DNA of 32,000 nt from an uncultured Clostridia bacterium. Its GTDB lineage: Bacteria > Bacillota > Clostridia > Christensenellales > Aristaeellaceae. The stretch spans positions 3,009-35,008 of the forward strand of contig CALCTW010000034.1 in NCBI GenBank assembly GCA_937907055.1, given 5' to 3'. This document shows, in pieces, positions 519-14,476 of this stretch (its first letter is position 1; each line of letters starts with the position of its first letter). The position numbers and the translations under genes are program-made. The notes beneath the pieces were generated by a model. It had not been told where the DNA came from. It saw nothing but the letters and a program-made list of their open reading frames with translations, and did no database searches.

Positions 519-3500
519 TTGACGGAATTCAACCATAACAACGGCGGCAGCGATCCCGCCGGTGAGACCCGTCCTTTTGCCCTTCCTGCCGATGACCGGC
601 CGGGGGCTGTTTCCGATACCCAGACCTTCGCGCCCGGAGAAGTCCAGGGCTACACAGATCCCCTCGGAGCCGCCGGATATCCGGAGGATGAACAGCCCCG
701 CAAGGCCTATTTTGACGATCACACCGATCCCTACCCCGAAGCGGCCCCTGCCTGGGAGCCGGAGGCCGATAACGGGAACGGCTATGATATCTCCGATGAT
801 CCCGCGCTGCAGATCGGGGATGTGCCGCCGCCGGAGCGCACGTTCGCCCCGGACGAGGACGAAGAAAAGAATCACAAGCGCAGCATCTTCAAGAAGCGCA
901 AGCGCAAGCCCAGCTTCGTGCTGGCCGTCATCATCAATTCGCTCCGCCTGCTGCTGCTCATCATCCTGCTGGTGGGTCTGAGCGGCGTGGGCGCCGTGAT
1001 CGGCATCGCCAAGGGCTATATGGACAGCGCGCCGGAGCTGGATCTGGCCGCCATCACCGATCAGGCGCAGACCAGTTTCATCTGCGACCGCTACGGCAAT
1101 GTGATCTGCGAATACATGGGCACGGAAAACCGCGTGATGGTGTCCATCACCACCATGCCGCAGCATCTTCAGCATGCCTTCGTGGCGGTTGAGGACGCGC
1201 GTTTCTACAGCCACAACGGTGTGGATGTCAAGCGCATCATCGGCGCTTTTGTGACCAACTTCACCACCGGCTCCAATCAGGGCGGCTCCACGATCACCCA
1301 GCAGCTGATCAAGAACACCCTGCTCTCCAACGAGCAGAGCTATAAGCGCAAGATCCAGGAAGCGTATCTGGCCATGCAGCTGGAGAACCGTTACACCAAG
1401 AATGAGATCCTGGAGAACTACCTGAACACCATCTATCTGGGCGAGAATTATTACGGTGTACAGGTCGCCAGCTACGGCTATTTCGGCAAGAATGACCTGA
1501 GCACGCTCACCCTGCGCGAGTGCGCCATGCTGGCCGGTATGACCCAGAACCCCTACTATTATAATTGCCGCCGTAATTATTACGTGCGCACGGTGACCGA
1601 TCCGAACGAGGATCCGAACACCTACCGCAATATCACGGATGACCGCACGGATTATGTGCTGCGCTGCATGCTTGAAAATGACTTCATCACGCAGGAGGAA
1701 TACAACGCCGCGCTGGACCGCAGCACCGCGCACATCCTGCAAAGCAGTCCGGAGAGCACGGAACTGTATTCCTACCCCCACTATGTGGAATACGCGGTAC
1801 GCGACGCCGTGCGCATCCTGCTGGAAAAGAACGGGCTGGAGAATACCTCCTCCAACCGCGTTGCCATGGAAAATGAGCTGCGTACCGGCGGCTATCACAT
1901 TTTCCTGGCCATCGATACCGAGATCCAGGAGCAGCTGGAAAACACCATCTACAATTATTCCGATTATCCCACCCTGCGTGACCCGGATGACAAGATCTAC
2001 CGCACGCGTAATTCCGACGGCACCTATAACGAGGTGATCCAGCCACAGGTGGCCGCAGTGGTGATGGATTACCGCACCGGCTATGTACTGGCCATGGTGG
2101 GCAGCCGCACACGCCCCACCGCGCGCAAAACGCTCAACCGCTGCACGGATATGAACATGCCGGTCGGCAGCAGCATCAAGCCCATCGCTGTCTACGCGCC
2201 GGCGATCGATATGGGCTGCAGTCCCGCCAGCGTGACCTACAACCTGCCCCTGCCCATCAGCGGATGGAAGGATGACAACGGCCGTGACAGCTGGCCCACC
2301 AACTACGGCGGCAGCAGCTACCGCGGGCCGGAGACCCTGCGGACCGCCCTGAAATACAGCGATAACACCGCGGCCGCGTGGACACTGCTCAATTACGTGA
2401 CCCTTGACCGCTCGGTGGATTACCTGACACGCATGGGCGTGAACAAGAGCCACATCAACGCCACCCCGTTCGGTGTTTCCCTCGGCAGCAGCGGCATCAC
2501 ACCGCTGGAGATGGCGGCCTGCTTCTCCGCGCTGGGCAACGGCGGCGTGTATCTGGAGCCGCTCACCGTGCTGGGCATCTTCAAGGAATCGCCCGGCGGC
2601 AATGTGGAAACGATCGCCGAATATTCCACCTATCAGGACCGCACACAGGTCTTCAAGGCCTCCACGGCCTATATGACCATCGATATGCTCAAGGACGCCG
2701 TGAGCGGCGGCACCGGTACCGGCGCCAAGATCAAAGGCCAGACCGTCGCCGGCAAGACCGGCACCAACAGCGATCAGAAGGGCGTGTTCTTTGCCGGGCT
2801 TACCGGCTGGTACTGCGGCACGGTCTGGATCGGCCATGACAACTACAAATCCCTTTCCAGCAAGACCACCGGCGGTACCGCCGCCGCGAAGCTGTGGAAC
2901 AGCTTTATGACCAAGATCCACAACGTCAAAAAGCTGGATAACAAAGATATTCTCAGCGGCAGCGCTTCGGATTACAATCTGGTCAAGGTGACCACCTGCG
3001 TGGTGAGCGGCCAGCTGGCGACCGATGCCTGCAAGCATGATCAGATGAACTACGGCACGGTGACCGATTACTGGTTGAACGGCACGCAGCCCACCACCTA
3101 CTGCCAGCTGCACAAGAGCGTGACCGTCTGCAGCGATTCCGGCAAGGCAGCCTCCCCGTACTGCCCTGTCACCTCCGAAAAGGGCGTCATCATCCTGCCG
3201 GTCGGGCATCCCCTGCAGCGTTTCGTCAACACCCAGTACAGCGGTGTGCTGACGGACTATCTGGGCGACTGGGCCAACCTGGATCTGGAGCATTATTCCC
3301 TGAACAGTCTGCTCGCCTCCGATACCTGCACCTGGCACAGCGGCTACCAGTCTCAGCCGCAGTATGGCGGCGGCGCCAGCATGAATGTGCTGAACGATGC
3401 CTACAGCCTGCTTTCCATGGGCGAGGCGCAGCTGTCCGTCCTCGGCCCCTACGCCCCCGGCTACAGCGCCCTGTTCAACGCGGTCAGCACGCTCAGCCAG

Positions 3501-3588: not shown

Positions 3589-5580
3589 ATGGAACTGAAG
3601 GATATCAAAGGCCTGGGCGAAAAGCGCCTGCAGGCCCTCGCGGAGAACGGGATCGATACGATCGGCAAGCTGATCCTGACTCTCCCGCACAGCTATAAAG
3701 ACCTGACACAGGATACGCCTGTCAGGGAAGCCGCGCCCGGCGCCGACATCTGCGTGACCGGGTGCGTTTGCCGCGCGCCGAAGCTCAGCCGCTTCAAGGG
3801 GCTTTCCTGTGTGAGCGCGCTTTTTGAAGATGATACCGGCACGATCGGGCTGCAATGGTTCAATCAGCCGTGGATGAAGGACAACCTGCCCGAGGACGGC
3901 GAGATCACCCTGCACGGAAAGGTGACGCGTACAAAAAAGGGAAATCTGGTGCTGAACAGTCCTCAGATCGTCACCGAACGCGCGCTGGTGCCCGTCTACA
4001 CCGCCCTGAAGGCGATCCCGGCGAAGACGCTGCAGCAGGTCATGAAGACCGCACTGGAAAAGGCGGAAGACTGCCTTCCGGAAACGCTGCCGGATTCCGT
4101 ACGGGAAAAGTACGGCCTGTGCGGCCGGCATTTCGCGCTCCGTCAGGCGCACTTCCCCACCGATCACGAATCCCTTTCCGCCGCGCTGCGGCGTTTATCC
4201 TTTGAGGGCCTGCTCTTCTATCAGGCGGCCACCGTGATGCTGCGCGGCGAAAAGCAAAAGGGCGAAGCCCTGCGTTTTGACAACGCGCTGCAGGATTATT
4301 TGGCCTCCCTGCCCTTCCCGCTGACAGGTGCGCAGACGCGCGTGCTGAACGAGATCGCGAAGGATATTTCCGCCCCAATCGCCATGAACCGTCTGGTGCA
4401 GGGCGATGTGGGCTGCGGCAAGACGGCAGTCGCCTTCGGCGCCATGTATATGTGCGCCCGCGCCGGGCGGCAGAGCGTGCTGCTCGCCCCGACGGAAATT
4501 TTAGCCCGTCAGCACTTTGAAAGCGCGAAGGCCGTGCTGGGCAGGCTGGGCATTTCCTGCGGGCTGCTGCTGGGCGGCATGAAGGTAAAGGAACGCCGGG
4601 AAGCCCTGCAGAAGATCCAAAGCGGCGAATGGCAATGCGTGATCGGAACGCATGCCCTGCTCAGCCGGGATGTGGAATACGCCGCCATCGGCCTGATCAT
4701 CACCGATGAACAGCACCGCTTCGGTGTCCGGCAGCGCAATGAGCTGAACCGCAAGACCGCGCTTCGCCCGCACGCGCTGGTGATGAGCGCCACGCCCATC
4801 CCCCGTTCGCTGGCCCTGGTCCTCTGGGGCGATCTGGATATCAGCGTCATTGACGAGATGCCGGCCGGACGCAAGCCCGTCCGCACCATGCTGGTTCCCG
4901 AGAAAAAACGCGAGGATATGTACCGTTTTCTGATCAGGGAAGCCGCGCTGGGGCATCAGGCCTACATCGTCTGTCCGCTTGTTTCGGAAAACGAGCAGAT
5001 GGATGCCGCCGGCGCGCAGGAGTTATACGCCGAGCTTTCTACCGGTCCGCTGCGTGACCTCCGGCTGGGGTTGACCTACGGCGGTCAGAAGCCCGACGAA
5101 AAAGAAAAGACCCTCGCCGCGTTTTCGGCGGGAGAGATCCAGGTGCTGATCGCCACCACCGTGGTCGAGGTGGGTGTGAACGTTCCGGCGGCGACCTGTA
5201 TGGTCATCGAGGACGCCCAGCGCTTCGGCCTATCCCAGCTCCATCAGCTGCGCGGACGCGTGGGACGCGGCGCGGACGAGAGCTGGTGCTTCCTGATGGC
5301 GGAAAAGAACGAACGGCTGGACACCCTGTGCAAAACCGGCGACGGCTTCAAGATCGCCGAAAAGGATCTGGAACTGCGCGGCCCCGGCGATTTTCTGGGC
5401 ACCCGCCAGCACGGCGCGCTGCTGCCCGGCATGAATTTTACCGCCGATGTGCGTCTGATCGAGCAGACCCGGGACTGCCTGCGGGATCTTCAATCCGGCC
5501 CTCCCGAGGATCTGGCCCTCGTGCGCGCGCAAGCCGCCGCGCTCTTCCGGCAGTCGCTTGAAGAGATCGTGCTGAACTGA
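3589..5580 (+). CDS. recG: ATP-dependent DNA helicase RecG
   Basis: Walker A GDVGCGKT, DEQHRFG box, SATPIPRS and QLHQLRGRVGRG helicase motifs. An N-terminal wedge/OB-like region is present and the length is typical (663 aa). Confidence 0.93.
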   Translation: MELKDIKGLGEKRLQALAENGIDTIGKLILTLPHSYKDLTQDTPVREAAPGADICVTGCVCRAPKLSRFKGLSCVSALFEDDTGTIGLQWFNQPWMKDNLPEDGEITLHGKVTRTKKGNLVLNSPQIVTERALVPVYTALKAIPAKTLQQVMKTALEKAEDCLPETLPDSVREKYGLCGRHFALRQAHFPTDHESLSAALRRLSFEGLLFYQAATVMLRGEKQKGEALRFDNALQDYLASLPFPLTGAQTRVLNEIAKDISAPIAMNRLVQGDVGCGKTAVAFGAMYMCARAGRQSVLLAPTEILARQHFESAKAVLGRLGISCGLLLGGMKVKERREALQKIQSGEWQCVIGTHALLSRDVEYAAIGLIITDEQHRFGVRQRNELNRKTALRPHALVMSATPIPRSLALVLWGDLDISVIDEMPAGRKPVRTMLVPEKKREDMYRFLIREAALGHQAYIVCPLVSENEQMDAAGAQELYAELSTGPLRDLRLGLTYGGQKPDEKEKTLAAFSAGEIQVLIATTVVEVGVNVPAATCMVIEDAQRFGLSQLHQLRGRVGRGADESWCFLMAEKNERLDTLCKTGDGFKIAEKDLELRGPGDFLGTRQHGALLPGMNFTADVRLIEQTRDCLRDLQSGPPEDLALVRAQAAALFRQSLEEIVLN

Positions 5581-5753: not shown

Positions 5754-6644
5754 ATGTCTGATTACATTCTCAGCTGCTGCTCTACCGCGGATATGAGCAA
5801 AGAATACTTTGAAAGCCGTAACATCCGTTACGCCTGCTTCAACTACGAACTGGACGGCACGACCTACAAGGATGACCTGGGTGTCACCATTCCCCTGCCG
5901 GATTTCTACGCCGCCATGGCGGAAGGCAAGATGACCCGCACCAGCCAGATCAACACCGAAGATTACGAAGCCTACTTTGAAGAGCTGCTGCAGGAGAACA
6001 AGCCCATCCTGCACATTGCCTTCTCCTCCGGTCTTTCCGGCTCTGTCAACAGCGCGATCATCGCGGCGGACAATGTGATGGAACGCCATCCCGGCTCCCG
6101 TGTCGTGGTGATCGACTCCGTGGCCGCTTCCTCCGGCTTCGGTCTGCTGGTGGACAAGGCCGCCGATCTGCGCGACGAAGGCAAGACCCTCGAAGAAAAC
6201 GCCGCCTGGATCGAGGCCCACAAAAAGAACCTGAACCACTGGTTCTTCACCACCACCCTCACCTACTTCATCCGCGGCGGCCGCGTCAGCAAGGTGAGCG
6301 GCACCCTGGGCAACATGCTCAATATCTGCCCCCTGCTCATCGTGAATGACGAAGGCAAGCTGATCAACGTGGAAAAGATCCGCACCAAGAAGAAGGTCAA
6401 GGCCACCATCGTGGACCGTATGATCGAAAACGCGGACAATGGCCTTGATTATGACGGCAAGTGCTTCATCTCCAACAGCAACTGCCTGGAGGACGCGCAG
6501 GATGTGGCCCGTATGATCGAAGAAAAGTTCCCCAAGCTGAACGGCAAAGTGCAGATCTACGACATCGGCACCGTCATCGGCAGCCACACCGGCCCCGGCA
6601 CCGTCGCGGTCTTCTTCTGGGGCAAGGAGCGCACGAACGCCTGA
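5754..6644 (+). CDS. DegV family fatty-acid-binding protein
   Basis: The overall sequence pattern is typical of DegV (for example VIDSVAASSGFGLLV and the GPGTVAVFF end). AAGGAG SD lies before the ATG. Confidence 0.9.
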   Translation: MSDYILSCCSTADMSKEYFESRNIRYACFNYELDGTTYKDDLGVTIPLPDFYAAMAEGKMTRTSQINTEDYEAYFEELLQENKPILHIAFSSGLSGSVNSAIIAADNVMERHPGSRVVVIDSVAASSGFGLLVDKAADLRDEGKTLEENAAWIEAHKKNLNHWFFTTTLTYFIRGGRVSKVSGTLGNMLNICPLLIVNDEGKLINVEKIRTKKKVKATIVDRMIENADNGLDYDGKCFISNSNCLEDAQDVARMIEEKFPKLNGKVQIYDIGTVIGSHTGPGTVAVFFWGKERTNA

Positions 6645-6790
6645 TCGCTCCGAACGGCAAGCCGCGCGGCTCCTGCAAAGAGCACCGCGCGTATTAAAAA
6701 AGCCTCCGGCAGTACAGCCTGAAGGCTGCCCGTCGTGCTCCCCAGTTCAGCAAGCGCTGATTTGCGGAAGTACAGATATTGCTTTCAAAG

Positions 6791-6826
6791 GACTCCGATC
6801 TCAGAAATGGGATCGGAGTCTTTTTT
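6791..6826 (+). terminator. Rho-independent terminator
   Basis: A perfect 10 bp stem GACTCCGATC (6791-6800) / GATCGGAGTC (6811-6820) with a 10 nt loop, followed by T6 (6821-6826). It sits at the point where composition drops to AT-rich. Confidence 0.75.
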
Positions 6827-6962
6827 GCTATGTACGGGTTTTACTATCCTTATGACCTTAATACAGCAAATCTATTGATGCATTTTGTTGCTGATTTGAT
6901 AAGTTGTTGCTTCGCTTGAAAAGGGATTATTTTGTATATGAGCCAAATACCAACTCAAAGGC

Positions 6963-6991
6963 TTGACAGAATCGTCAAAACGAACTATAAT
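6963..6991 (+). promoter_or_regulatory. Perfect-consensus sigma-70/sigma-A promoter
   Basis: TTGACA (6963-6968), exactly 17 nt, then TATAAT (6986-6991). The TTG of the -35 box is what the ORF track uses as the start codon of the 394 aa ORF. Confidence 0.7.
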
Positions 6992-7067
6992 TGAGAGCGT
7001 GAAAACTTACCATGTTGGACTACATGATGCAAGCGATCACTGTACCAAGAAAGAGAGGGCACCACAA

Positions 7068-8147
7068 GTGGAAGGAACAAGCGAAAAAGTGAAGCATCCA
7101 TGCGTGGCTCTTCGGGATGAAATGATTCGCGCCGGCATGAATCAAAGGGAGCTCTCAGTTCGAACCGGAGCCACAGAGAAGCATATCAGCACTGTTCTGA
7201 ACGGTGACCGAGATATCTCGGTGGCATTTGCCAGAAAGCTAGGTTATGTGTTTGAACATGACGCAACCTATTGGCTTGATTTGCAGGCACAGTACGACAG
7301 CTATCAGATGCGTATTCGTGAAGAAAATGAAATATCACAAGACGAGCTTGATATTCTCAAACCCTTGCATGATATTTGTGAGCACTTCATTCAGCGCGGA
7401 TATCTGAAGAATCATTGCGGCGATGCAACAAAGGTCATGCGTCTTCGGTCACTGCTTGGCGTCAGTGACCTGACTGCCATTCCGAGGATTACATATAACG
7501 CAGCGTATCGCGCTCAGATCACAGAGAATGTGAAGGTGGATCCGTATGTGCTGTTTGCATGGCAACGGTTATGCGAAAAAGAAACGGAACACATTATCTC
7601 AGATTCAGATCTGAATGTGGATAAACTTCAGGAATGCATCGGTGAAATCAAGCAACAGATGCATGGCGCCATAACGGAAAGCATTGCTTCGCTGCAGAAT
7701 ATCTTTGCCCGCTGCGGTATAGCATTTCAGGTGGTGAAGAATTTCCGCGGAGCCCCTGTTCAAGGGTTCATAAAAAAAACGGAGGCAGGGAAAGTACTGT
7801 TATGCCTCACGATCCGCGGCGGACGATCGGATGCATTTTGGTTTACCTTGTTCCATGAGATCGGTCATCTCTTGCATGGTGATGTGACCACGAGATTTGT
7901 GGATTTTGACTCCATATCAGGGAAGGCAGAAGATGCTGCCAATCGGTTTGCGAGTGATACGCTGATCGATCCGGAAAAGTACAGACAGTTTTTGCGAAGC
8001 AAGTCTTCGATTCTGTGGCAGGATATTGAAGCATTTGCGAAGCAGGAAGATATCATGCCCTCTATTGTGCTGGGTCGTCTGCAAAAAGACGGTATTCTGG
8101 AGTGGTCTGACTACGCAGGCAATGTAGTTCGCTACCAGTGGGCGTGA
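7068..8147 (+). CDS. Fusion of an XRE/HigA-type HTH domain with an ImmA/IrrE (COG2856, Peptidase_M78-like) zinc metallopeptidase domain
   Basis: The N-terminus HPCVALRDEMIRAGMNQRELSVRTGATEKHISTVLNGDRDISVAFARKLGYVF follows the HigA/VapI HTH pattern. The C-terminus carries the HEXXH motif FHEIGHLLHGD. The start is uncertain: GTG 7068 (GAGGG 8 nt upstream) is preferred, with GTG 7089 as an alternative. Either must lie downstream of the promoter at 6963-6991. Confidence 0.85.
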   Translation: MEGTSEKVKHPCVALRDEMIRAGMNQRELSVRTGATEKHISTVLNGDRDISVAFARKLGYVFEHDATYWLDLQAQYDSYQMRIREENEISQDELDILKPLHDICEHFIQRGYLKNHCGDATKVMRLRSLLGVSDLTAIPRITYNAAYRAQITENVKVDPYVLFAWQRLCEKETEHIISDSDLNVDKLQECIGEIKQQMHGAITESIASLQNIFARCGIAFQVVKNFRGAPVQGFIKKTEAGKVLLCLTIRGGRSDAFWFTLFHEIGHLLHGDVTTRFVDFDSISGKAEDAANRFASDTLIDPEKYRQFLRSKSSILWQDIEAFAKQEDIMPSIVLGRLQKDGILEWSDYAGNVVRYQWA

Positions 8148-8370
8148 ATCGCCGTTGTGATCTGTATTTGGCGATACAGGTCACAGTGGCCTGAATCCAG
8201 AGATGAAGGAGGTGAGAATATTGAGGGCAATAAAAAAACCGGTAGTTGACTGTTGGCGCAGCTGCTACCGGTACCCCTGCGGAATTGGCGTTCCACAAGA
8301 GCAGAAGCGTCAGATGATGACACTTTCCCACAGTCATCATAACACTTTTCTGCTGCGACGTCAATAAACT

Positions 8371-8435
8371 ATGCTTTTGTTCTGTAGATATGAATGCTTT
8401 TGTTCTGTAATATGAACGGATATGAACAAAAGCAT
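8371..8435 (+). promoter_or_regulatory. Repeat cluster (putative operator) with an embedded candidate promoter
   Basis: ATGCTTTTGTTCTGTA occurs twice in direct orientation (8371-8386 and 8394-8409, 23 bp period). Its inverted copy GAACAAAAGCAT lies at 8424-8435. ATATGAA occurs three times (8388, 8410, 8420). A candidate promoter TAGATA (8385-8390)-17-TAATAT (8408-8413) has repeat 2 filling its spacer. Confidence 0.5.
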
Positions 8436-8476
8436 GTTGACTAGAATTGCTCTGAGGAGCAGAAAGTGAGAATAAT

Positions 8477-9151
8477 ATGACGGATATTTTTACTGTCGCG
8501 GATCTACTAGAAATCATTAGGGATTATAAAATGTATCTTCAAGGGAAGGTACATTTTGCTCCGGATGGTTGGCCGATAATGGAGCGAGAATGGTTCCTCG
8601 ATGTATGGCCTGATGAACTTGTTCCATATCCAAATCGGAACAATAAACTGTATCACAACAAGCACAATTCTACTCTATGCTACTATTGCGCTGACAATCG
8701 CATCTATCCAAGATTCAATAACCTGTTTCAAGAAATCGGATCATACAAAGCATTTCAAGGAGTTGTTGGACCGGATATCACAGTTACCAGAGACATGGAT
8801 ATCGAGCTGCAACAATCGATTATGTTGGCAAATCAGTTGTTTATGGCGATTCTTGCAGTAAATGGAATCAAAGTTGTACTTAACACCCGTTGCGGGGGAT
8901 TGGCAACAGTATCGTGCTTCCGATACCTCCCCAAAGGGATTATGTGTGCATCCGGCTTCCTTGGTTGCAGCAATTCCCGTACAACATCAGAAGCGAGCAT
9001 ATATGTCAACAAGGTGTTATCTTTACGGCCGTCTAAATTGCTTGTATACGGAAAGCAAGATGAATTGGTTAACCAACAATTGGATACGCTTGGTATTAAC
9101 TATAGGTATTACGAAGATTTTCATCGTATTTCTTGCAGGAGGTGCGTGTGA
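8477..9151 (+). CDS. DUF4417-like protein (function unknown)
   Basis: The sequence follows the pattern I recall for DUF4417: FQGVVGPDITVTRDMDIELQQSIMLANQLFMAILAVNGIKVVLNTRCGG, then KGIMCASGFLGC, then PSKLLVYG. This rests on recollection, not on a search. Confidence 0.65.
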   Translation: MTDIFTVADLLEIIRDYKMYLQGKVHFAPDGWPIMEREWFLDVWPDELVPYPNRNNKLYHNKHNSTLCYYCADNRIYPRFNNLFQEIGSYKAFQGVVGPDITVTRDMDIELQQSIMLANQLFMAILAVNGIKVVLNTRCGGLATVSCFRYLPKGIMCASGFLGCSNSRTTSEASIYVNKVLSLRPSKLLVYGKQDELVNQQLDTLGINYRYYEDFHRISCRRCV

Positions 9152-9537
9152 TGTCTGACTATAAGCAAGCGTATTCTGATATCTCTAAAGATTACATCGA
9201 GAATGTCGTCCCCAACAATTCACTGGACACGGAGCGCTACAATCGAAGCAAACTTCGAGAAGCGAAGAACAATGATAACTGGTTGAAAAACAAAGTAAAT
9301 CTCAATGAAATTGTGGACCGTTTTGTCCCAACCGTTGAAGGCTTTGTGGAACAGCATCACGAAGGTGGTGTCAAGTATGACTTTGAAGGAGAAAGATATA
9401 TTGTAAAATGTGATAAAGTTGCAGGCTACCTTCGGATCTATGATAAACAAGCAAAAATGTATTGTACATTGGATGGGACTCCTTCAAGAAATGGTGACGA
9501 AACTCATTTCAAGATCAAACGAAGGGAGGAGATGTGA
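9151..9537 (+). CDS. Hypothetical protein (128 aa), no recognised domain
   Basis: The ATG overlaps the upstream stop (TGATG). AGGAGG lies 8 nt upstream. Coding-like composition. The C-terminal segment VAGYLRIYDKQAKMYCTLDGTPSRNGDETHFKIK looks beta-rich. Confidence 0.6.
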   Translation: MSDYKQAYSDISKDYIENVVPNNSLDTERYNRSKLREAKNNDNWLKNKVNLNEIVDRFVPTVEGFVEQHHEGGVKYDFEGERYIVKCDKVAGYLRIYDKQAKMYCTLDGTPSRNGDETHFKIKRREEM

Positions 9538-9541
9538 CCGT

Positions 9542-9886
9542 ATGTGGATTCGGGTAGCGAAACACCAAAGCGCCATCAAAATCGGCCAAGCTGGTAATCG
9601 TTATATTGATGGGCCTCTTATCGAAGAATTCTATTTTGACGAAGCAATGGCAGAAGCACTGGATGCAGATCATTTTCTTCCTGAAATGTGGGAAAAACTT
9701 CAGGCAATGTTTGATTGGGGAGATTGTGATTATTTCGAAGCTGATCGTTGCAAGAAGCTTTACACTTGGGTTTCAGAAAGACTGTGCAAAGACATCTCTC
9801 CTGCGATCAGACCTGTATATGAGGTGATGCAAGAGTATTCTGCATTGGCCGTAAGGCTTAATACCGGGATGTACTTTGATTTTTGA
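9542..9886 (+). CDS. Hypothetical acidic protein (114 aa), no recognised domain
   Basis: The ATG lies 4 nt after the upstream stop. GGGAGGAG lies about 11 nt upstream. The protein is Trp/Asp/Glu-rich. The upstream part of the 158 aa track ORF overlaps the previous gene and is not used. Confidence 0.6.
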   Translation: MWIRVAKHQSAIKIGQAGNRYIDGPLIEEFYFDEAMAEALDADHFLPEMWEKLQAMFDWGDCDYFEADRCKKLYTWVSERLCKDISPAIRPVYEVMQEYSALAVRLNTGMYFDF

Positions 9887-9896
9887 GGACGCATTG

Positions 9897-10316
9897 ATGA
9901 AATCAACTTATCAAATACCGTCGATACATCTTGATTCGCGCCCTCTCCCCACAGTTGTCCCTAAGATAATACAATTGTCTGAAGCTGAACGGTACCGGGA
10001 CTTGTCGAATGATTATGATCTTACAGATTACCCTGATTGTAAAAGGAAGGTATCTGCTCTTGATCTTCTAAGGATAAACGATGAGAAAGCGATTCTGTCT
10101 GCTCTGCTGCCCTTTCCTGGCAATATGACACTGGTAGTAGTACTTGACTACCTTGCTGGTTGCAGACCGGCAGACAGTTTGTTTGTGAGACGCACACTCC
10201 AAGCCATTCAACTTGTTCTGTCCCTCTTTCCGCAAGTTACTATTATGCTTGCTGTTACACCAACCGAACAAGACTTCTTTCGGGATATAATCAATACAGC
10301 ATACAAGGGAGCGTAA
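9897..10316 (+). CDS. Hypothetical protein (139 aa), no recognised domain
   Basis: The ATG lies 10 nt after the upstream stop, with GAGGA 7 nt upstream. The C-terminal half is hydrophobic (LVVVLDYLAGC...LVLSLFPQVTIMLAV). Confidence 0.55.
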   Translation: MKSTYQIPSIHLDSRPLPTVVPKIIQLSEAERYRDLSNDYDLTDYPDCKRKVSALDLLRINDEKAILSALLPFPGNMTLVVVLDYLAGCRPADSLFVRRTLQAIQLVLSLFPQVTIMLAVTPTEQDFFRDIINTAYKGA

Positions 10317-10320
10317 TCTG

Positions 10321-10668
10321 ATGAATCATGAAACCATTGGCCTGAAAGTCACGGAATACGCATCCATGGCTACCTTGTGTGACCATTATCAGAAAATACC
10401 GCAATGCATCCATGAGCGAGATTGTCTCAGCAATCAAGAACAACGAGTATGTTCTATGCTTTGATTATGATGATGACCGCGGTCTGAAAAAATCATCGCC
10501 TGCTACAAGGCACTTCGGAAGGCAAAGATTGGCGCCCAGTTATATGAGATGGATGACGAGCCCACCACGCTCAAGTTCATGGAGAACCTGAACGGTACCT
10601 ATCGGCAGATCTCTGAAGAGTGGATGCACAGATGGAAGCAGAGTCCGAGACCTGATCTTTATAGCTAA
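10321..10668 (+). pseudogene. Frame-disrupted small ORF (about 115 codons if repaired), unknown function
   Basis: An ATG at 10321 has AGGGAG 9 nt upstream. Protein-like translation continues only by switching frame twice, near the TGTGTG run (~10376-10381) and at the A6 run (10487-10492). The repaired C-terminus is ...DDDRGLKK/IIACYKALRKAKIGAQLYEMDDEPTTLKFMENLNGTYRQISEEWMHRWKQSPRPDLYS, with the stop at 10666-10668. Confidence 0.4.
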
Positions 10669-10701
10669 GAGGACCATCGTTTGAACAAGCGATGGTCTGA
10701 A

Positions 10702-10731
10702 GTCTCCGGCACGAAAGCCGGAGACTTTTTT
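10702..10731 (+). terminator. Rho-independent terminator closing the AT-rich islet operon
   Basis: Stem GTCTCCGGC (10702-10710) / GCCGGAGAC (10717-10725), loop ACGAAA, then T6 (10726-10731). A second hairpin precedes it (GACCATCG...CGATGGTC, ~10672-10697). Confidence 0.7.
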
Positions 10732-10744
10732 ATGTATGGATCAC

Positions 10745-12562
10745 TTACGCGTTCAGCAGAGAGCCGGTCGCCTCATCCTCATACTGACGGGTATACAGGC
10801 GATGATAATAGCCGCCCTTCTTCAGCAGCTCGGTATGCGTGCCCTGTTCCACGATCTTACCGTCCTGCACCACGAGGATCAGATCGGCATTCTTGACAGT
10901 AGACAGGCGGTGCGCGATCACAAGGCTGGTACGGCCCTGTATGATGGTATCGATGGCAGCCTGGATCTTCTGTTCGGTCAGGGTATCCACGCTGGCCGTG
11001 GCTTCATCCAGCACCAGAATCCGGGGATCGCACAGGATGGCGCGCGCGAAGCTGATCAATTGCTTTTCGCCGGTGGACAGCACATCGCCGCCCTCGCCCA
11101 CATCGGTATCGATGCCGTTTTCCATCCGCGCCACCACCTCATCCGCGCTGACCAGCTTCAGCGCGCGGGCGATCTGTTCCTCCGTCGCGTTCGGATTGCC
11201 GTACAGCAGGTTTTCACGGATCGTGCCGCTGAACAGATGCGGTGTCTGCAGCACGTAGCCGATGGCGGAATGCAGCCACAGCTGACTGCGCTCCCGGGCA
11301 TCCCGGTCATCGATCAGCACCTGACCCGCGGTGGGCTCAAAGAAGCGGCAGACCAGATTGACCAGTGTACTCTTGCCCGCGCCGGTCTCGCCGACGATGG
11401 CGATATTGCTGCCGAAGGGGATCTTCAGATTAAAATGCTCCAGCACGTATTCATCGCCGTCCGGATACCTGAAGGAGACATCCTTGAATTCGATATCGCC
11501 GCGCAGCGGTTCCCAGTTTTCCTTCTTCGGGTTGAAGGAGTCGCCGTACTGTTCAATGACCGCGGGGGTATCGGTCACATCGCTCTTCGTGCCCAGCAGA
11601 CGGGTCAGACGCTCGATATTGACCTGCGTTGTAATCACATCGCTGATCGCGTCAATGATCCAGCGGACAGGCTCCATCATGCCCTCGGCATAGCTCATGA
11701 ACATGGAGAAGGTGCCCACTTCGCTCTCGGCGATGTATCCGCCCTTCCACAGCACGATGGCCAGCGCCAGACTGCTGGCCAGGTTCATGGTGGCGGCAAA
11801 CAGTCCGCGAAGACGGCTGGCATGGATGCCCATGTGCTTCATCTTCGCCGTATCGGCATTGAAATCGCCGTTCATCTTATCCTCGATCACGAGGGTCTTG
11901 ATGGTCTTGGCGCCGGTAATGCCTTCATTGAAATCGCCCGTGATCCTGCTGTTCTGCTCGCGGATCTGACGGTTCACATGCACCAGCTTTTTCTGGAACA
12001 GGCTGAAAAGGATCACGATCAGCGGCAGAATGGTGACCACCATCAGCGCCAGCTTGGCGTTGACGATGAACATGACCGCCACGACACCCACCAGATAGCT
12101 CAGATGCCACACGCTGTCCATCAGCGTCCAGCTGACCAGCGAGCCGATGCGGGAGGTGTCGCTCATCACACGGCTGTGGATATAGCCCACGCTGTTCTGA
12201 TTAAAATAGCTGAAGGAAAGGGTCTGCAGATGATTGAACGCCGCGTTGCGCAGGTCCCGGTTGAAGGAGACCTCCACCGTCATGGCGCCGGAGCAGCTCA
12301 CATAGTTGCACGCGCCCGCGAACAGGGTGCAGCCGACATACAGCAGAATGAACCACGGCAGGGTGTCCAGGGTATGCTCCCCGATAAAGTGGTTCAGCGC
12401 GTAGCGCTGGAAAACCGGAATCAGGATATCCACACCCGTCGCCAGCAGGCCGCAAAACACCATGATGCTCAGCCGCTTCCGGTACTTTTTCATGAACGGG
12501 ATCAGCCGCGGGATCCCGAAAAACGGCAGAGACACATTTTTTTCTTTCGTTTCTTCACTCAT
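10745..12562 (-). CDS. ABC transporter permease/ATP-binding protein (type I exporter half-transporter, second of pair)
   Basis: An N-terminal six-TM exporter domain. Walker A GETGAGKS, signature LSTGEKQ, Walker B ILVLDEATAS. The start overlaps the upstream stop (TAATG at 12560-12564). Confidence 0.93.
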   Translation of the reverse strand: MSEETKEKNVSLPFFGIPRLIPFMKKYRKRLSIMVFCGLLATGVDILIPVFQRYALNHFIGEHTLDTLPWFILLYVGCTLFAGACNYVSCSGAMTVEVSFNRDLRNAAFNHLQTLSFSYFNQNSVGYIHSRVMSDTSRIGSLVSWTLMDSVWHLSYLVGVVAVMFIVNAKLALMVVTILPLIVILFSLFQKKLVHVNRQIREQNSRITGDFNEGITGAKTIKTLVIEDKMNGDFNADTAKMKHMGIHASRLRGLFAATMNLASSLALAIVLWKGGYIAESEVGTFSMFMSYAEGMMEPVRWIIDAISDVITTQVNIERLTRLLGTKSDVTDTPAVIEQYGDSFNPKKENWEPLRGDIEFKDVSFRYPDGDEYVLEHFNLKIPFGSNIAIVGETGAGKSTLVNLVCRFFEPTAGQVLIDDRDARERSQLWLHSAIGYVLQTPHLFSGTIRENLLYGNPNATEEQIARALKLVSADEVVARMENGIDTDVGEGGDVLSTGEKQLISFARAILCDPRILVLDEATASVDTLTEQKIQAAIDTIIQGRTSLVIAHRLSTVKNADLILVVQDGKIVEQGTHTELLKKGGYYHRLYTRQYEDEATGSLLNA

Positions 12563-14400
12563 TATTCACACGCCTCCTCTCCGGAAAGGCTCTGGATATC
12601 GTAGATCTGTTTATATAGTCCCTCCTGACGCGCCAGTTCCTCCGGCGTGCCCAGCTGGGCGACCCGGCCATGATCCAGCACAAGCACCTGCTCTGCCTTG
12701 GACAGGGTGGTGATGCGGTGGCTGATCAGGATGATGGTCGCGCTGCCGAAACGCTTTTCAAGCGCGGCGCGGATCTTCGCGTCGGTCTCGGTATCGACTG
12801 CGGACAGGGAATCATCAAAGATCATCACCGGGGTCTTCTGCGTCAGCATACGGGCAATGGCCGCGCGCTGCTTCTGACCGCCGGACAGCGTAACGCCGCG
12901 CTCACCCACGAAGGTGTCATAACCCTTGCTGAAGCCGTTGATCGTCTCATCCAGGCAGGCGGCCTTCGCGGCCTCGTCGATATCCGCCTGGATCAGCGCG
13001 TCATTGGTGATCATCAGGTTTTCCTTCAAGGTGCGCGAGAACAGGAACGGCTCCTGCAGAACGATGCCGATGTTCTTCCGCAGATGCTCCATGCGGATCT
13101 CATTGATGTCCCTGCCGCCGATAGTGATCCGGCCGTTCTCCGGCTTCAGGGGATACAGGCGGTCCAGCAGATACATCAGCGTGCTCTTACCGCTGCCCGT
13201 ACCGCCCAGAATGCCCAGCGTGGTCCCGGCCGGGATCCTGAAGGAGATGTCATGCAGCATCTCGGGGCAGTTGTCATACCCGAAGCTCACATGATCGAAT
13301 ACGATATCCCCGGTCATATCGGCATCCGTCACGCCCGGCGCGTCCTTCTCTTCGTCCGCGTCCATGATATAGCCCACACGGTCGATCGCGACACCGGCCT
13401 TGCTCATCTCGCTGATCATGCGGCCCAGCTGACGGACAGGCCACACCAGCATGCCGTTGTAGCTGACGAAGGCGATATACTGGCCGGGTGTCATGTCTCC
13501 GTTCAGCACGAAGATCACACCGAAAACGCTGGTCAGCATCACCTGAACGCCCACCAGAATATCGCTCGTGATCCAGAAGCGCGCCAGGATCATGGCCATT
13601 TTTGTCCACAGGGATGTGTAGTAATCGTTGTGCTTTTCAAAACGGTCACGCTCGTAACGCTCCCGTCCGAAGGCGCGCACCACACGCACACCGGTCAGGT
13701 TCTCCTGCGCCATGGCGCTCAGCTTGCCCTCGTTTTCATCGCACTTTTCAAAAGCCTCTCCCACCTTATTGTGGAACACCAGCGAATAGATGACCATGAT
13801 GGGCATCGGCGCCAGCGCGACCAGCGTCAGAAGCGGATTCATCCCGATCATGAAGACCAGGCTCATGACCAGCAGGATCACGATGCGGATCAGGCCGGTC
13901 ATCTGCTCGGAAATAAAGTTGCGCATGGTATCGATATCGCTGGTGCAGCGCTGGATGATATCGCCCGTGTGATTCTGCATGTGCCACTGGAACGGCAGGC
14001 GGCTGATGTGCGAATAAAGCGTATCGCGCATGTTCTTGACCAGTGTTTCGCTGCCGCGGGCATTGGTCACGCGGAAGCCGTACTGGCAGATCACCTTGAC
14101 CAGCGCCACCAGCACGATGGCGAGCGCCAGGATCCACAGATCCTGCCTGAGCTGCGCCACACCGCCCACCTTCGCGATCAGATCCTGCACAAAGGGGCTC
14201 AGACTGCTGAGCTCCTGCCCGCCGATGACATTATCCACCGCCACGCGGATGATCTGCGGGGTGATCATGTCGCTCAGCGCGCTGAGCGCCGCGCAAAGCA
14301 TGCACAAAAGGAACATGGCCCGCGCGCCCCTCAAAAATGCCCAGATCAGTTTCGCGCGTCCGGGCCGCTTTTCAGACGGCTTTGAAATCGTATTTTCCAT
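12562..14400 (-). CDS. ABC transporter permease/ATP-binding protein (type I exporter half-transporter, first of pair)
   Basis: Walker A GGTGSGKS, signature LSGGQKQR, Walker B VMIFDDSLSAVD. I chose the start at the ATG at 14400 (MENTISK...) because GGGAGGGA precedes it. The longer track ORF to 14463 lacks an SD. Confidence 0.92.
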   Translation of the reverse strand: MENTISKPSEKRPGRAKLIWAFLRGARAMFLLCMLCAALSALSDMITPQIIRVAVDNVIGGQELSSLSPFVQDLIAKVGGVAQLRQDLWILALAIVLVALVKVICQYGFRVTNARGSETLVKNMRDTLYSHISRLPFQWHMQNHTGDIIQRCTSDIDTMRNFISEQMTGLIRIVILLVMSLVFMIGMNPLLTLVALAPMPIMVIYSLVFHNKVGEAFEKCDENEGKLSAMAQENLTGVRVVRAFGRERYERDRFEKHNDYYTSLWTKMAMILARFWITSDILVGVQVMLTSVFGVIFVLNGDMTPGQYIAFVSYNGMLVWPVRQLGRMISEMSKAGVAIDRVGYIMDADEEKDAPGVTDADMTGDIVFDHVSFGYDNCPEMLHDISFRIPAGTTLGILGGTGSGKSTLMYLLDRLYPLKPENGRITIGGRDINEIRMEHLRKNIGIVLQEPFLFSRTLKENLMITNDALIQADIDEAAKAACLDETINGFSKGYDTFVGERGVTLSGGQKQRAAIARMLTQKTPVMIFDDSLSAVDTETDAKIRAALEKRFGSATIILISHRITTLSKAEQVLVLDHGRVAQLGTPEELARQEGLYKQIYDIQSLSGEEACE

Positions 14401-14440
14401 ATTCGGTCCCTCCCTATCACAGAGTCTGTTTCTCTGCCAA

Positions 14441-14476
14441 TAAAAAACGCCTGTTCCGCACATACGGACAGGCGTG
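14441..14476 (-). terminator. Intrinsic terminator inside the 5' leader of the ABC operon (putative attenuator)
   Basis: On the minus-strand RNA: CGCCTGTCCG, loop UAUGUG, CGGAACAGGCG, then U6. The plus-strand stem arms are 14448-14458 and 14465-14474, with the A-run at 14442-14447. It lies about 40 nt upstream of the ABC start codon and 20 nt after the leader ORF stop. Confidence 0.6.

Follow-up and report, generated by a model that had tools for sequence, protein, structure and literature searches.

Polymorphic toxin-immunity systems (Jamet et al. 2017, PMC5576092) carry the toxic domain as the C-terminal tip of a longer protein, for which PAAR, RHS and MuF proteins are the standard carriers, and an immunity gene follows the toxin gene. 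In the CapH/CapP, ImmR/ImmA and DdrO/IrrE switches, a helix-turn-helix (HTH) repressor and an M78 peptidase lie upstream of a potentially lethal operon. DarT/DarG is a toxin system with two-way immunity, by binding and by enzymatic action. Bxa/Bsi/BAH comparably pairs a toxin with two immunity proteins, of which one binds and the other is an enzyme (PMC11699363), and PD-lambda-2 is a toxin-antitoxin-like abortive-infection system around an Xre-peptidase fusion (Vassallo et al. 2022, PMC9519451). The locus described here has parts in common with several of these systems. It lies in a window of 32,000 nucleotides (contig CALCTW010000034.1, positions 3,009 to 35,008) from the genome of a gut or rumen Clostridia bacterium, where a gene for an XRE-HTH/M78 fusion protein precedes genes for a DUF4417 protein and three small proteins, referred to as ORF2, ORF3 and ORF4. 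These four genes form a conserved cassette of 1.8 kb, and ORF2 is homologous in sequence to the tips that PAAR, RHS and MuF polymorphic toxins carry at their C-termini. The cassette is undescribed; Pfam, NCBIfam, PHROGs and PADLOC all lack models for the ORF2, ORF3 and ORF4 families. With moderate confidence, we regard it as most likely a mobile, toxin-immunity-based conflict cassette that is triggered by stress or phage and acts by growth arrest or abortive-infection-type defence.

Scanning one genome per species gave 48 loci, and gene families were tallied by tblastn and jackhmmer over all ORFs of 62 loci, duplicates included. DUF4417 is present in 60 of the 62, ORF2 in 55, ORF3 in 58 and ORF4 in 54. 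All four are adjacent in about 50 loci from three phyla (Clostridia, Actinobacteria and Fibrobacter), the hosts being Lachnospiraceae, Oscillospiraceae, Erysipelotrichaceae, Bifidobacterium, Atopobium, Eggerthellaceae and Fibrobacter. With so many independent loci showing these neighbours, the arrangement goes far beyond chance and the neighbourhood is strongly conserved. The genes are almost always tightly packed, and in about 50 loci all four reading frames are unbroken, with evident purifying selection. Four gene orders are distinguished (Table 1, where D stands for DUF4417 and numerals for the other ORFs); a previous reading of the window from its letters alone (hereafter the sequence-only reading) called the operon DUF4417-led, which holds for the order of the window but not for the remaining ones. 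ORF3 directly follows ORF2 in nearly all loci, with the exception of L044, and DUF4417 and ORF4 either adjoin or are fused in every order but the most common one. The ORF2-ORF3 pair is duplicated in L040, and L029 has three copies of ORF3.

The evidence on ORF2 comes from an exhaustive profile search of 1.84 billion (1.84e9) representative proteins, in which the family has only 154 members, mostly stand-alone proteins of 120-130 aa. The distant matches (E 1e-6 to 3e-4) are to the last ~100 residues of longer proteins, in which Pfam identifies PAAR, DUF6443 and Phage_Mu_F domains. The region shared with these tips begins at about residue 25 of ORF2, and seven residues are invariant across ORF2 and tips in the alignment (K75, D88, Y93, R95, D98, T118 and H119). 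Reciprocally, a hidden Markov model built from eight tips alone retrieves all 56 ORF2 ORFs, and no others, among 5,203 ORFs, with the ORF2 of the window at E=1.6e-15. Since its conserved residues are His, Arg, Lys, Asp and Tyr and its partner is of a DNA-mimic type (see below), ORF2 is probably a metal-independent enzyme targeting nucleic acid. The AlphaFold2 (AF2) model (mean predicted local distance difference test score, pLDDT, 88) shows a helical hairpin together with an antiparallel beta-sheet; a Foldseek search of it against PDB gave no match below E=0.18, and entries for colicin E3 and contact-dependent inhibition proteins at E about 1 were not used. ORF2 is conserved at 70-79% identity, as compared with about 50% for DUF4417 and about 30% for ORF4.

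Unlike the tips of polymorphic toxins, ORF2 stands alone, with no trafficking or secretion domain (PAAR, RHS, LXG or MuF) and no other domain in its 128 aa, and the pair that it forms with ORF3 is joined to DUF4417 and ORF4 behind an XRE/M78 regulator. The cassette is also found outside type VI secretion system (T6SS), type VII secretion system (T7SS) or prophage context, and its toxin domain has no Pfam model. Matches to ORF2 number zero in INPHARED (50,697 phage genomes), PLSDB and IMG/VR, cassette-type DUF4417 is missing from IMG/VR, and the phage genome collection holds one DUF4417 match, at 23% identity. Given the INPHARED, PLSDB and IMG/VR searches, a phage or plasmid origin of the cassette was rejected.

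The genes immediately 3' of the ORF2-like toxins encode acidic proteins of 104-126 aa (isoelectric point, pI, 4.1-4.9) with a common C-terminus, ...AI..N...FDF, and ORF3 ends much alike, in ...AVRLNTGMYFDF. An ORF3 profile matches these downstream proteins weakly but specifically (16.4 bits for the one in L067, hhalign P=1.6e-4), and they rank top in the ORF3 profile search among 185 ORFs of toxin loci. ORF2 and ORF3 are fused in P0250 and P0284, ORF3 is present at every locus with an ORF2 ORF, and it is kept where ORF2 is truncated or missing (L014, L031 and L035). The sequence-only reading had likened a basic protein of 128 aa and an acidic, Trp-rich one of 114 aa to a toxin/immunity pair. 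The pairing has gained sequence support from the homology of ORF2 to toxin tips and the likeness of ORF3 to the downstream immunity genes, and ORF3 is indeed acidic (pI 4.6, four Trp); ORF2, with a pI of 6.3, is not basic. ORF2 would thus be the toxin and ORF3 its neutralising antidote. The pair differs from a type II toxin-antitoxin system, in which the antitoxin binds DNA and is usually encoded first: ORF3 comes after the toxin, and no HTH, ribbon-helix-helix or other Pfam domain is matched among 43 members of its family, scattered noise aside.

Two further loci bear on the pair. The gene after the PAAR toxin (L062:4969-5325) encodes a member of the Pfam DMP12 (DNA-mimic) family, and this occurrence in the immunity position suggests that DMP12 proteins are polymorphic-toxin immunity proteins. 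Bifidobacterium tissieri has, ~9 kb from its cassette (L023:19898-20623, minus strand), another ORF2-like gene (120 aa) and behind it an acidic ORF of 117 aa; neither DUF4417 nor ORF4 goes with them, and the two have the appearance of a minimal toxin-immunity pair.

The first product of the cassette had been taken for DUF4417 in the sequence-only reading, and Pfam PF14386 bears this out (51.2 bits against a gathering score of 28.9, E=1.4e-13, residues 41-202). Across 113 homologues, D73, R79, D100, N136, R138, S159, C164, K179 and D214 are invariant and D106, D108 and H216 nearly so. The AF2 model (pLDDT 93) has seven alternating beta-alpha units, and the conserved residues (Asp, Asn, Arg, Ser, Cys and His) are found at the C-terminal ends of strands or shortly after them, a placement that suggests an enzyme active site; DUF4417 is therefore predicted from the model to be a TIM-barrel-like enzyme. 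Foldseek matches of this model in PDB are generic TIM barrels only, and weak (E about 0.02, TM about 0.4), while those in BFVD are unnamed DUF4417 proteins only. Sequence searches of PDB with DUF4417 and ORF2, using single sequences and profiles, gave nothing, and a full-text literature search on DUF4417 found no assigned function. Phages are reported often to fuse DUF4417 to ParB-CTPase domains (bioRxiv 10.1101/2025.10.10.680097). The protein of the window has the DUF4417 domain in common with these fusions (phrog_940, E=2e-10) but no N-terminal ParB/Srx domain, according to the Pfam scan and to a PHROG match confined to profile positions 178-358 of 388. The phage ParB-DUF4417 proteins are not accompanied by ORF2 nor, presumably, by ORF3 and ORF4.

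ORF4 is a partner of DUF4417, as its domain also occurs as the N-terminal extension of DUF4417 proteins of 357-375 aa (hhalign of the ORF4 family against the extension: probability 99.9%, E=1.7e-31); such fused ORFs are found in L046, L061 and P0100/105/110. That ORF4 might be a second immunity paralogue of ORF3 was ruled out (hhalign probability 1.4%). Polymorphic-toxin loci with ORF2-like tips have neither DUF4417 nor ORF4, so immunity to toxins of this type does not need either of them there. DUF4417-ORF4 could be a sensor or trigger, a second, enzymatic antidote, or a second effector. The Bxa/Bsi/BAH logic could fit a small binder (ORF3) plus an enzyme (DUF4417-ORF4), as an analogy only, no homology having been found.

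Upstream of the cassette in the window, the XRE-ImmA-type regulator that had been noted consists of a probable XRE-HTH domain fused to an M78 peptidase with an HEIGH motif. Nearly the whole protein aligns with PADLOC PD-Lambda-2_B (E=1.2e-27), and there are further matches to phrog_2439 (E=4e-22) and the phrog_87 metalloprotease. The M78 part has its HExxH motif at aa 298, with 21.9 bits to Peptidase_M78 (cut-off 22) and E=8e-7 to capP. Scores for the HTH part are all under the curated cut-offs, yet mutually consistent (HTH_3 18.4 bits, cut-off 23; HigA TIGR02607 41.4 bits, cut-off 47.7; PADLOC capH E=0.023). By these matches the regulator appears CapH-CapP-, ImmR-ImmA- or PD-lambda-2B-like. 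CapH and CapP of CBASS are described as divergent genes, whereas the regulator here is a single fused protein encoded co-directionally with an entirely different cargo. With PD-lambda-2 it shares the B component only, the downstream genes being unrelated, and membership of that system was rejected given that there is no P4-antitoxin-like C gene, PADLOC giving no hit for C, and no HigB-like A gene (only about 200 bp are available upstream). The TTG at 6963 that opens an over-long regulator ORF of 394 aa is the -35 box of the promoter, and the true start is probably the GTG at 7068, in keeping with a gene call of 359 aa in L001. Three copies of ATGCTTTTGTTC precede DUF4417, and no further perfect copies occur anywhere in the window; the cluster is a plausible operator.

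The spacer between the regulator and DUF4417 genes has other features of its own. Between the window and L001, no other part of the islet has diverged as much (92% identity, with indels), and the spacer holds an antisense promoter-like site (TTGACG-17-TATGAT with TG, 8336-8364, minus strand) aimed at the 3' end of the regulator gene, beside a 22-nt imperfect inverted repeat (8300-8354). A small ORF at 8220-8367, which has a strong Shine-Dalgarno sequence, is probably not a gene, being unconserved and diverging faster than the coding genes.

The regulator link seen in the window is general across homologous cassettes. XRE and/or M78 genes adjoin the cassette at 26 of about 46 evaluable loci and come, as separate or fused genes, from four or more sequence clusters unrelated to one another; many are capP/capH-like, PADLOC finding capP 11 times and capH seven times among upstream neighbours. 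A Fic gene takes the place of XRE/M78 at 6-7 loci; four of these genes are assigned to the SoFic defence family, with E values as low as 6e-106, and SoFic is found upstream of the cassette at 4-7 loci. Type III, Type I and Type IIG restriction-modification (R-M) genes and MADS genes lie downstream at about eight loci, and one cassette is beside MazE-PIN. Together, R-M, MADS and SoFic genes flank about a third of loci. In L061 (6072-14250), a cassette with an ORF4-DUF4417 fusion is situated between the Type III mod (N6_N4_Mtase) and res (ResIII plus RE_endonuc) genes.

The layout of the window itself is largely as the sequence-only reading had described it. Five co-directional ORFs are spaced by -1 (a TGATG overlap), 4, 10 and 4 nt; Shine-Dalgarno-like elements (AGGAGG, GGGAGGAG, GAGGA and AGGGAG) precede ORF2 to ORF5, and only GTGAG precedes the DUF4417 ATG. 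The AT-rich islet between housekeeping genes was likewise confirmed by its GC content (Table 1). ORF2-5 have zero matches in Pfam, PHROGs, PADLOC and NCBIfam scans, and no ORF was assigned a phage or integrative and conjugative element (ICE) housekeeping function by the family scans. Among effector genes scanned against PADLOC-DB v2, DUF4417, ORF2, ORF3 and ORF5 gave nothing at E<=1, and the sole match of ORF4 was QatA, at E=0.019. An Rfam search of the islet found zero RNA families. The claim of a five-gene operon stands as to the co-directional run but not as to the conserved unit, which comprises four genes and excludes ORF5. The fifth frame is disrupted, as had been seen, by three frameshifts (near 10375, in the A-run 10487-10492 and near 10617) when compared with P0378 (113 aa) and P0380 (105 aa), in which the homologous frame is intact; in L001 there is one frameshift. 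Outside the lineage of the window, ORF5 is missing at all other cassette loci by tblastn and jackhmmer. Its family is tiny, with four clusters of acidic proteins (105-123 aa) of no known domain in 5.8 billion sequences, and one relative, P0379 (L069:8001-8372), is in a cassette-free setting near integrase and MCRA genes.

The islet is best explained as a small, horizontally acquired island without an integrase. By blastn, L001-L006 are 98.7-99.9% identical to the window over 6711-10697, and homology to L001 ends at 10697; in these metagenome contigs the near-identical islet is at a different site, immediately after rplM-rpsI. In L001 and L002 its left end completes rpsI, supplying the last ~50 bp, with a degenerate second copy 4.1 kb downstream; in the window, which has the islet away from rpsI, the rpsI-like left end looks like an att-type remnant. 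Att-like direct repeats of 24-408 bp flank about 19 islets, including, besides L001, L030 and L058 (Table 1), L007, L016, L020, L027, L036, L047 and L052. No integrase or recombinase is encoded within 6711-10697, and hardly any locus has a recombinase gene within 10 kb: a motif scan of all loci found a single candidate tyrosine recombinase, 8.7 kb from its cassette. In having att-like repeats at gene 3' ends and no internal recombinase, the islets resemble cis-mobilizable elements (CIMEs) and other integrase-less islands mobilised in trans, but no helper element was identified and the repeat length varies from 24 to 408 bp.

At the left junction of the window islet (6700-6712), half of the right-hand terminator hairpin (AAGYCTCCGGCA) recurs, and the only repeat flanking the islet is an imperfect one of 12 bp. 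Insertion apparently took place within the bidirectional terminator hairpin that separates degV from the ABC operon (6695-6712, 10699-10732), and the islet is without the ~150 bp and second rpsI copy present in L001; a search of JGI metagenomes for the empty site gave no match. The ABC-transporter pair of the window (10745-14463, minus strand) is orthologous (82% and 70% aa identity) to that at L055:5164-8921 in another Clostridia genome. A DUF4417 cassette directly follows there too, but it belongs to a different lineage (51% identity), is oriented the other way and comes with different accessory genes, which suggests that the site is an insertion hotspot. In three Lachnospiraceae genomes, a ~27-bp repeat, GATATGYTAAACATACCAAATYGT, encloses the four cassette genes and nothing else, in a unit of 1.86 kb; the repeat may serve as a site of recombination, act as an operator or be the scar of a tandem duplication, a dif/Xer reading having been dropped as the resemblance was too partial. 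In L060, a 44-bp hairpin-containing repeat present three times (5502-5545, 9455-9498 and 12254-12297) bounds two consecutive units, one encoding a Metallophos protein of 990 aa plus a DnaB_C fragment and the other being the cassette, an arrangement suggestive of tandem accretion at a single site, or of a genome-wide element resembling repetitive extragenic palindromes (REP).

Table 1. Features of the islet and its flanks in the window, with carriers of ORF2-like tips, cassette gene orders and flanking repeats at other loci.
Feature	Position or identifier	Strand	Remarks
Islet	6711-10697 (3,987 bp)		Between degV and convergent ABC-transporter pair; 44% GC vs 60% and 57% in flanks
Islet left end	6711..6762	+	~50 bp copy of rpsI 3' end (...LKAARRAPQFSKR*); window islet not beside rpsI
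Consensus sigma-70 promoter, TTGACA-17-TATAAT	6963..6991	+	12/12 match; for regulator gene, possibly whole operon
XRE-HTH/M78 (ImmA-type Zn-metallopeptidase) fusion	7068..8147	+	359 aa from GTG at 7068; HEIGH at 7854-7868
Three perfect ATGCTTTTGTTC copies (two direct, one inverted)	8371..8435		40-105 nt upstream of DUF4417; candidate operator
DUF4417 protein, 224 aa	8477..9151	+	Pfam PF14386
ORF2, 128 aa, stand-alone copy of toxin domain	9151..9537	+	Most conserved cassette gene
ORF3, 114 aa, pI 4.6, putative immunity (antidote) protein of ORF2	9542..9886	+	Starts 4 nt after ORF2
ORF4, 139 aa, partner of DUF4417	9897..10316	+	Found by jackhmmer in 54 loci
ORF5 pseudogene, remnant of acidic protein of ~105-113 aa	10321..10668	+	Three-frame translation, alignment to L001
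Right boundary, bidirectional terminator hairpin	10699..10728		Common to convergent ABC transporter operon; terminator scan
PAAR protein with ORF2-like tip	P0370		
3,398-aa DUF6443-domain protein with ORF2-like tip	P0363		
Fragments ending in RHS core motif, with ORF2-like tip	P0344, P0348, P0374		
MuF and VG15 phage-head proteins with ORF2-like tip	P0368, P0365, P0351		
Gene order D-2-3-4			Most common; order of the window
Gene order 2-3-4-D			Actinobacteria
Gene order 2-3-[XRE-M78]-D-4			Fibrobacter
Gene order 3-D-4-2			L044
L001 repeat	2559-2610 and 6666-6718		rpsI 3' end, about 50 bp
L030 repeat	2973-3018 and 6387-6432		tRNA-Arg(CCT) 3' 46 nt
L058 repeat	7019-7079 and 11068-11128		UPF0014 gene 3' end, 61 bp
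GATATGYTAAACATACCAAATYGT repeat	L028:6518-6544, 8381-8407; L032:9917-9942, 11777-11802; L034:1964-1991, 3827-3853		

The proposal of a candidate undescribed conflict or defence module made by the sequence-only reading is supported by the conserved neighbourhood and the toxin-tip homology, from which a defence phenotype would follow only by interpretation. In the mechanism that we propose, the XRE domain would repress the operon via the ATGCTTTTGTTC repeats, and DNA damage or phage replication may activate the M78 peptidase, as for CapP, ImmA and IrrE, leading to de-repression. ORF3 would bind and neutralise ORF2; were ORF3 outcompeted, lost or displaced, ORF2 would arrest or kill the cell, thereby aborting infection and/or stabilising the islet, with DUF4417-ORF4 as a possible sensor or trigger, or as an enzymatic second antidote. 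A number of observations weigh against such a conflict cassette. Since ORF2 and ORF3 are translationally coupled, induction alone cannot free ORF2, and the promoter scan detected no + strand promoter immediately upstream of DUF4417. The similarity of ORF3 to immunity proteins is weak (9-16 bits), no recognised regulator is present at 14 loci (about 30%), and most neighbours are housekeeping genes, so that defence-island enrichment is only moderate. Two loci from metagenome-assembled genomes (L039 and L043) have DUF4417 split while ORF2 is intact, by which DUF4417 may be dispensable for self-protection. As neither AF2 model has a significant PDB match, the enzymatic activities of DUF4417 and ORF2 are guesses.

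Of the other explanations, a purely selfish addiction module, with ORF2/ORF3 as a toxin-antitoxin-like pair stabilising an integrase-less islet, DUF4417-ORF4 as cargo and no anti-phage role, would suit the islets as discrete insertions, with direct repeats of 24-408 bp at 3' ends of tRNAs and other genes and with different sites at 99% identity, as well as the ORF2-like/acidic pair alone in L023 and the many housekeeping neighbours. We consider it unlikely, since all four genes are co-conserved across three phyla, the CapH/CapP-like control and the R-M and SoFic neighbours are typical of immunity operons, and a chromosomal islet of 2-4 kb scarcely needs post-segregational killing. XRE/M78 pairs control damage regulons in Deinococcus (10.1101/2022.04.27.489752), which, along with the fusion of phage DUF4417 to DNA-acting ParB-CTPase domains and the DMP12-type DNA-mimic partner beside ORF2-like toxins, is in favour of an IrrE/DdrO-type DNA-damage response, repair or modification operon, where DUF4417-ORF4 would process nucleic acids and ORF2/ORF3 would be a domesticated, non-lethal nuclease and its regulator. 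The patchy distribution, foreign GC content and mobile behaviour of the islets, and the identity of the conserved residues of ORF2 with those of genuine secreted toxins, make this distinctly improbable.

Orphan immunity arrays are common in gut bacteria, and the three tandem ORF3 genes of L029 and the retention of ORF3 where ORF2 is truncated or missing could indicate an immunity island, in which ORF3 is kept against ORF2-type toxins from neighbours or MuF prophages and ORF2 is a leftover. However, ORF2 is the most conserved of the four and intact in 55 loci, and DUF4417-ORF4 and the regulators would be left unexplained; this explanation we judge highly improbable. Regulators of the ImmR/ImmA type are typical of ICEs and prophages, and these, the att-like repeats without an integrase and the ORF5 pseudogene would also be consistent with the decayed end of such an element, a regulatory module plus early genes with no present function. 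Such an origin has very little probability, as ORF2 is missing from the 50,697 phage genomes, PLSDB and IMG/VR and cassette-type DUF4417 from IMG/VR, no cassette locus is inside a recognisable larger element, and purifying selection has kept the four ORFs intact. The conflict cassette remains our preferred explanation. A bolder form of it is quite unlikely but worth stating: a new anti-phage immune system with a warfare-type toxin, a mimic-like immunity protein and control by a DUF4417 enzyme with an ORF4 lid that makes, senses or reverses a nucleic-acid modification, to which phage ParB-DUF4417 would be a counter-measure. In a bolder variant, the cassette proteins might themselves mobilise the att-flanked, integrase-less islets.

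The cassette gives DUF4417, which is widespread in phages and gut bacteria, its first functional context, and indicates that a toxin domain of T6SS, RHS and MuF weaponry has come to serve inside the cell as an effector under a regulator. It is compact and conserved in Clostridia, Actinobacteria (including Bifidobacterium) and Fibrobacter, and can be tested directly by cloning. The att-flanked islets without an integrase raise the separate question of how mini-islands move. If the cassette is a defence system, it would add a new effector and a new control logic to bacterial immunity, and might offer a reason why phages carry DUF4417.

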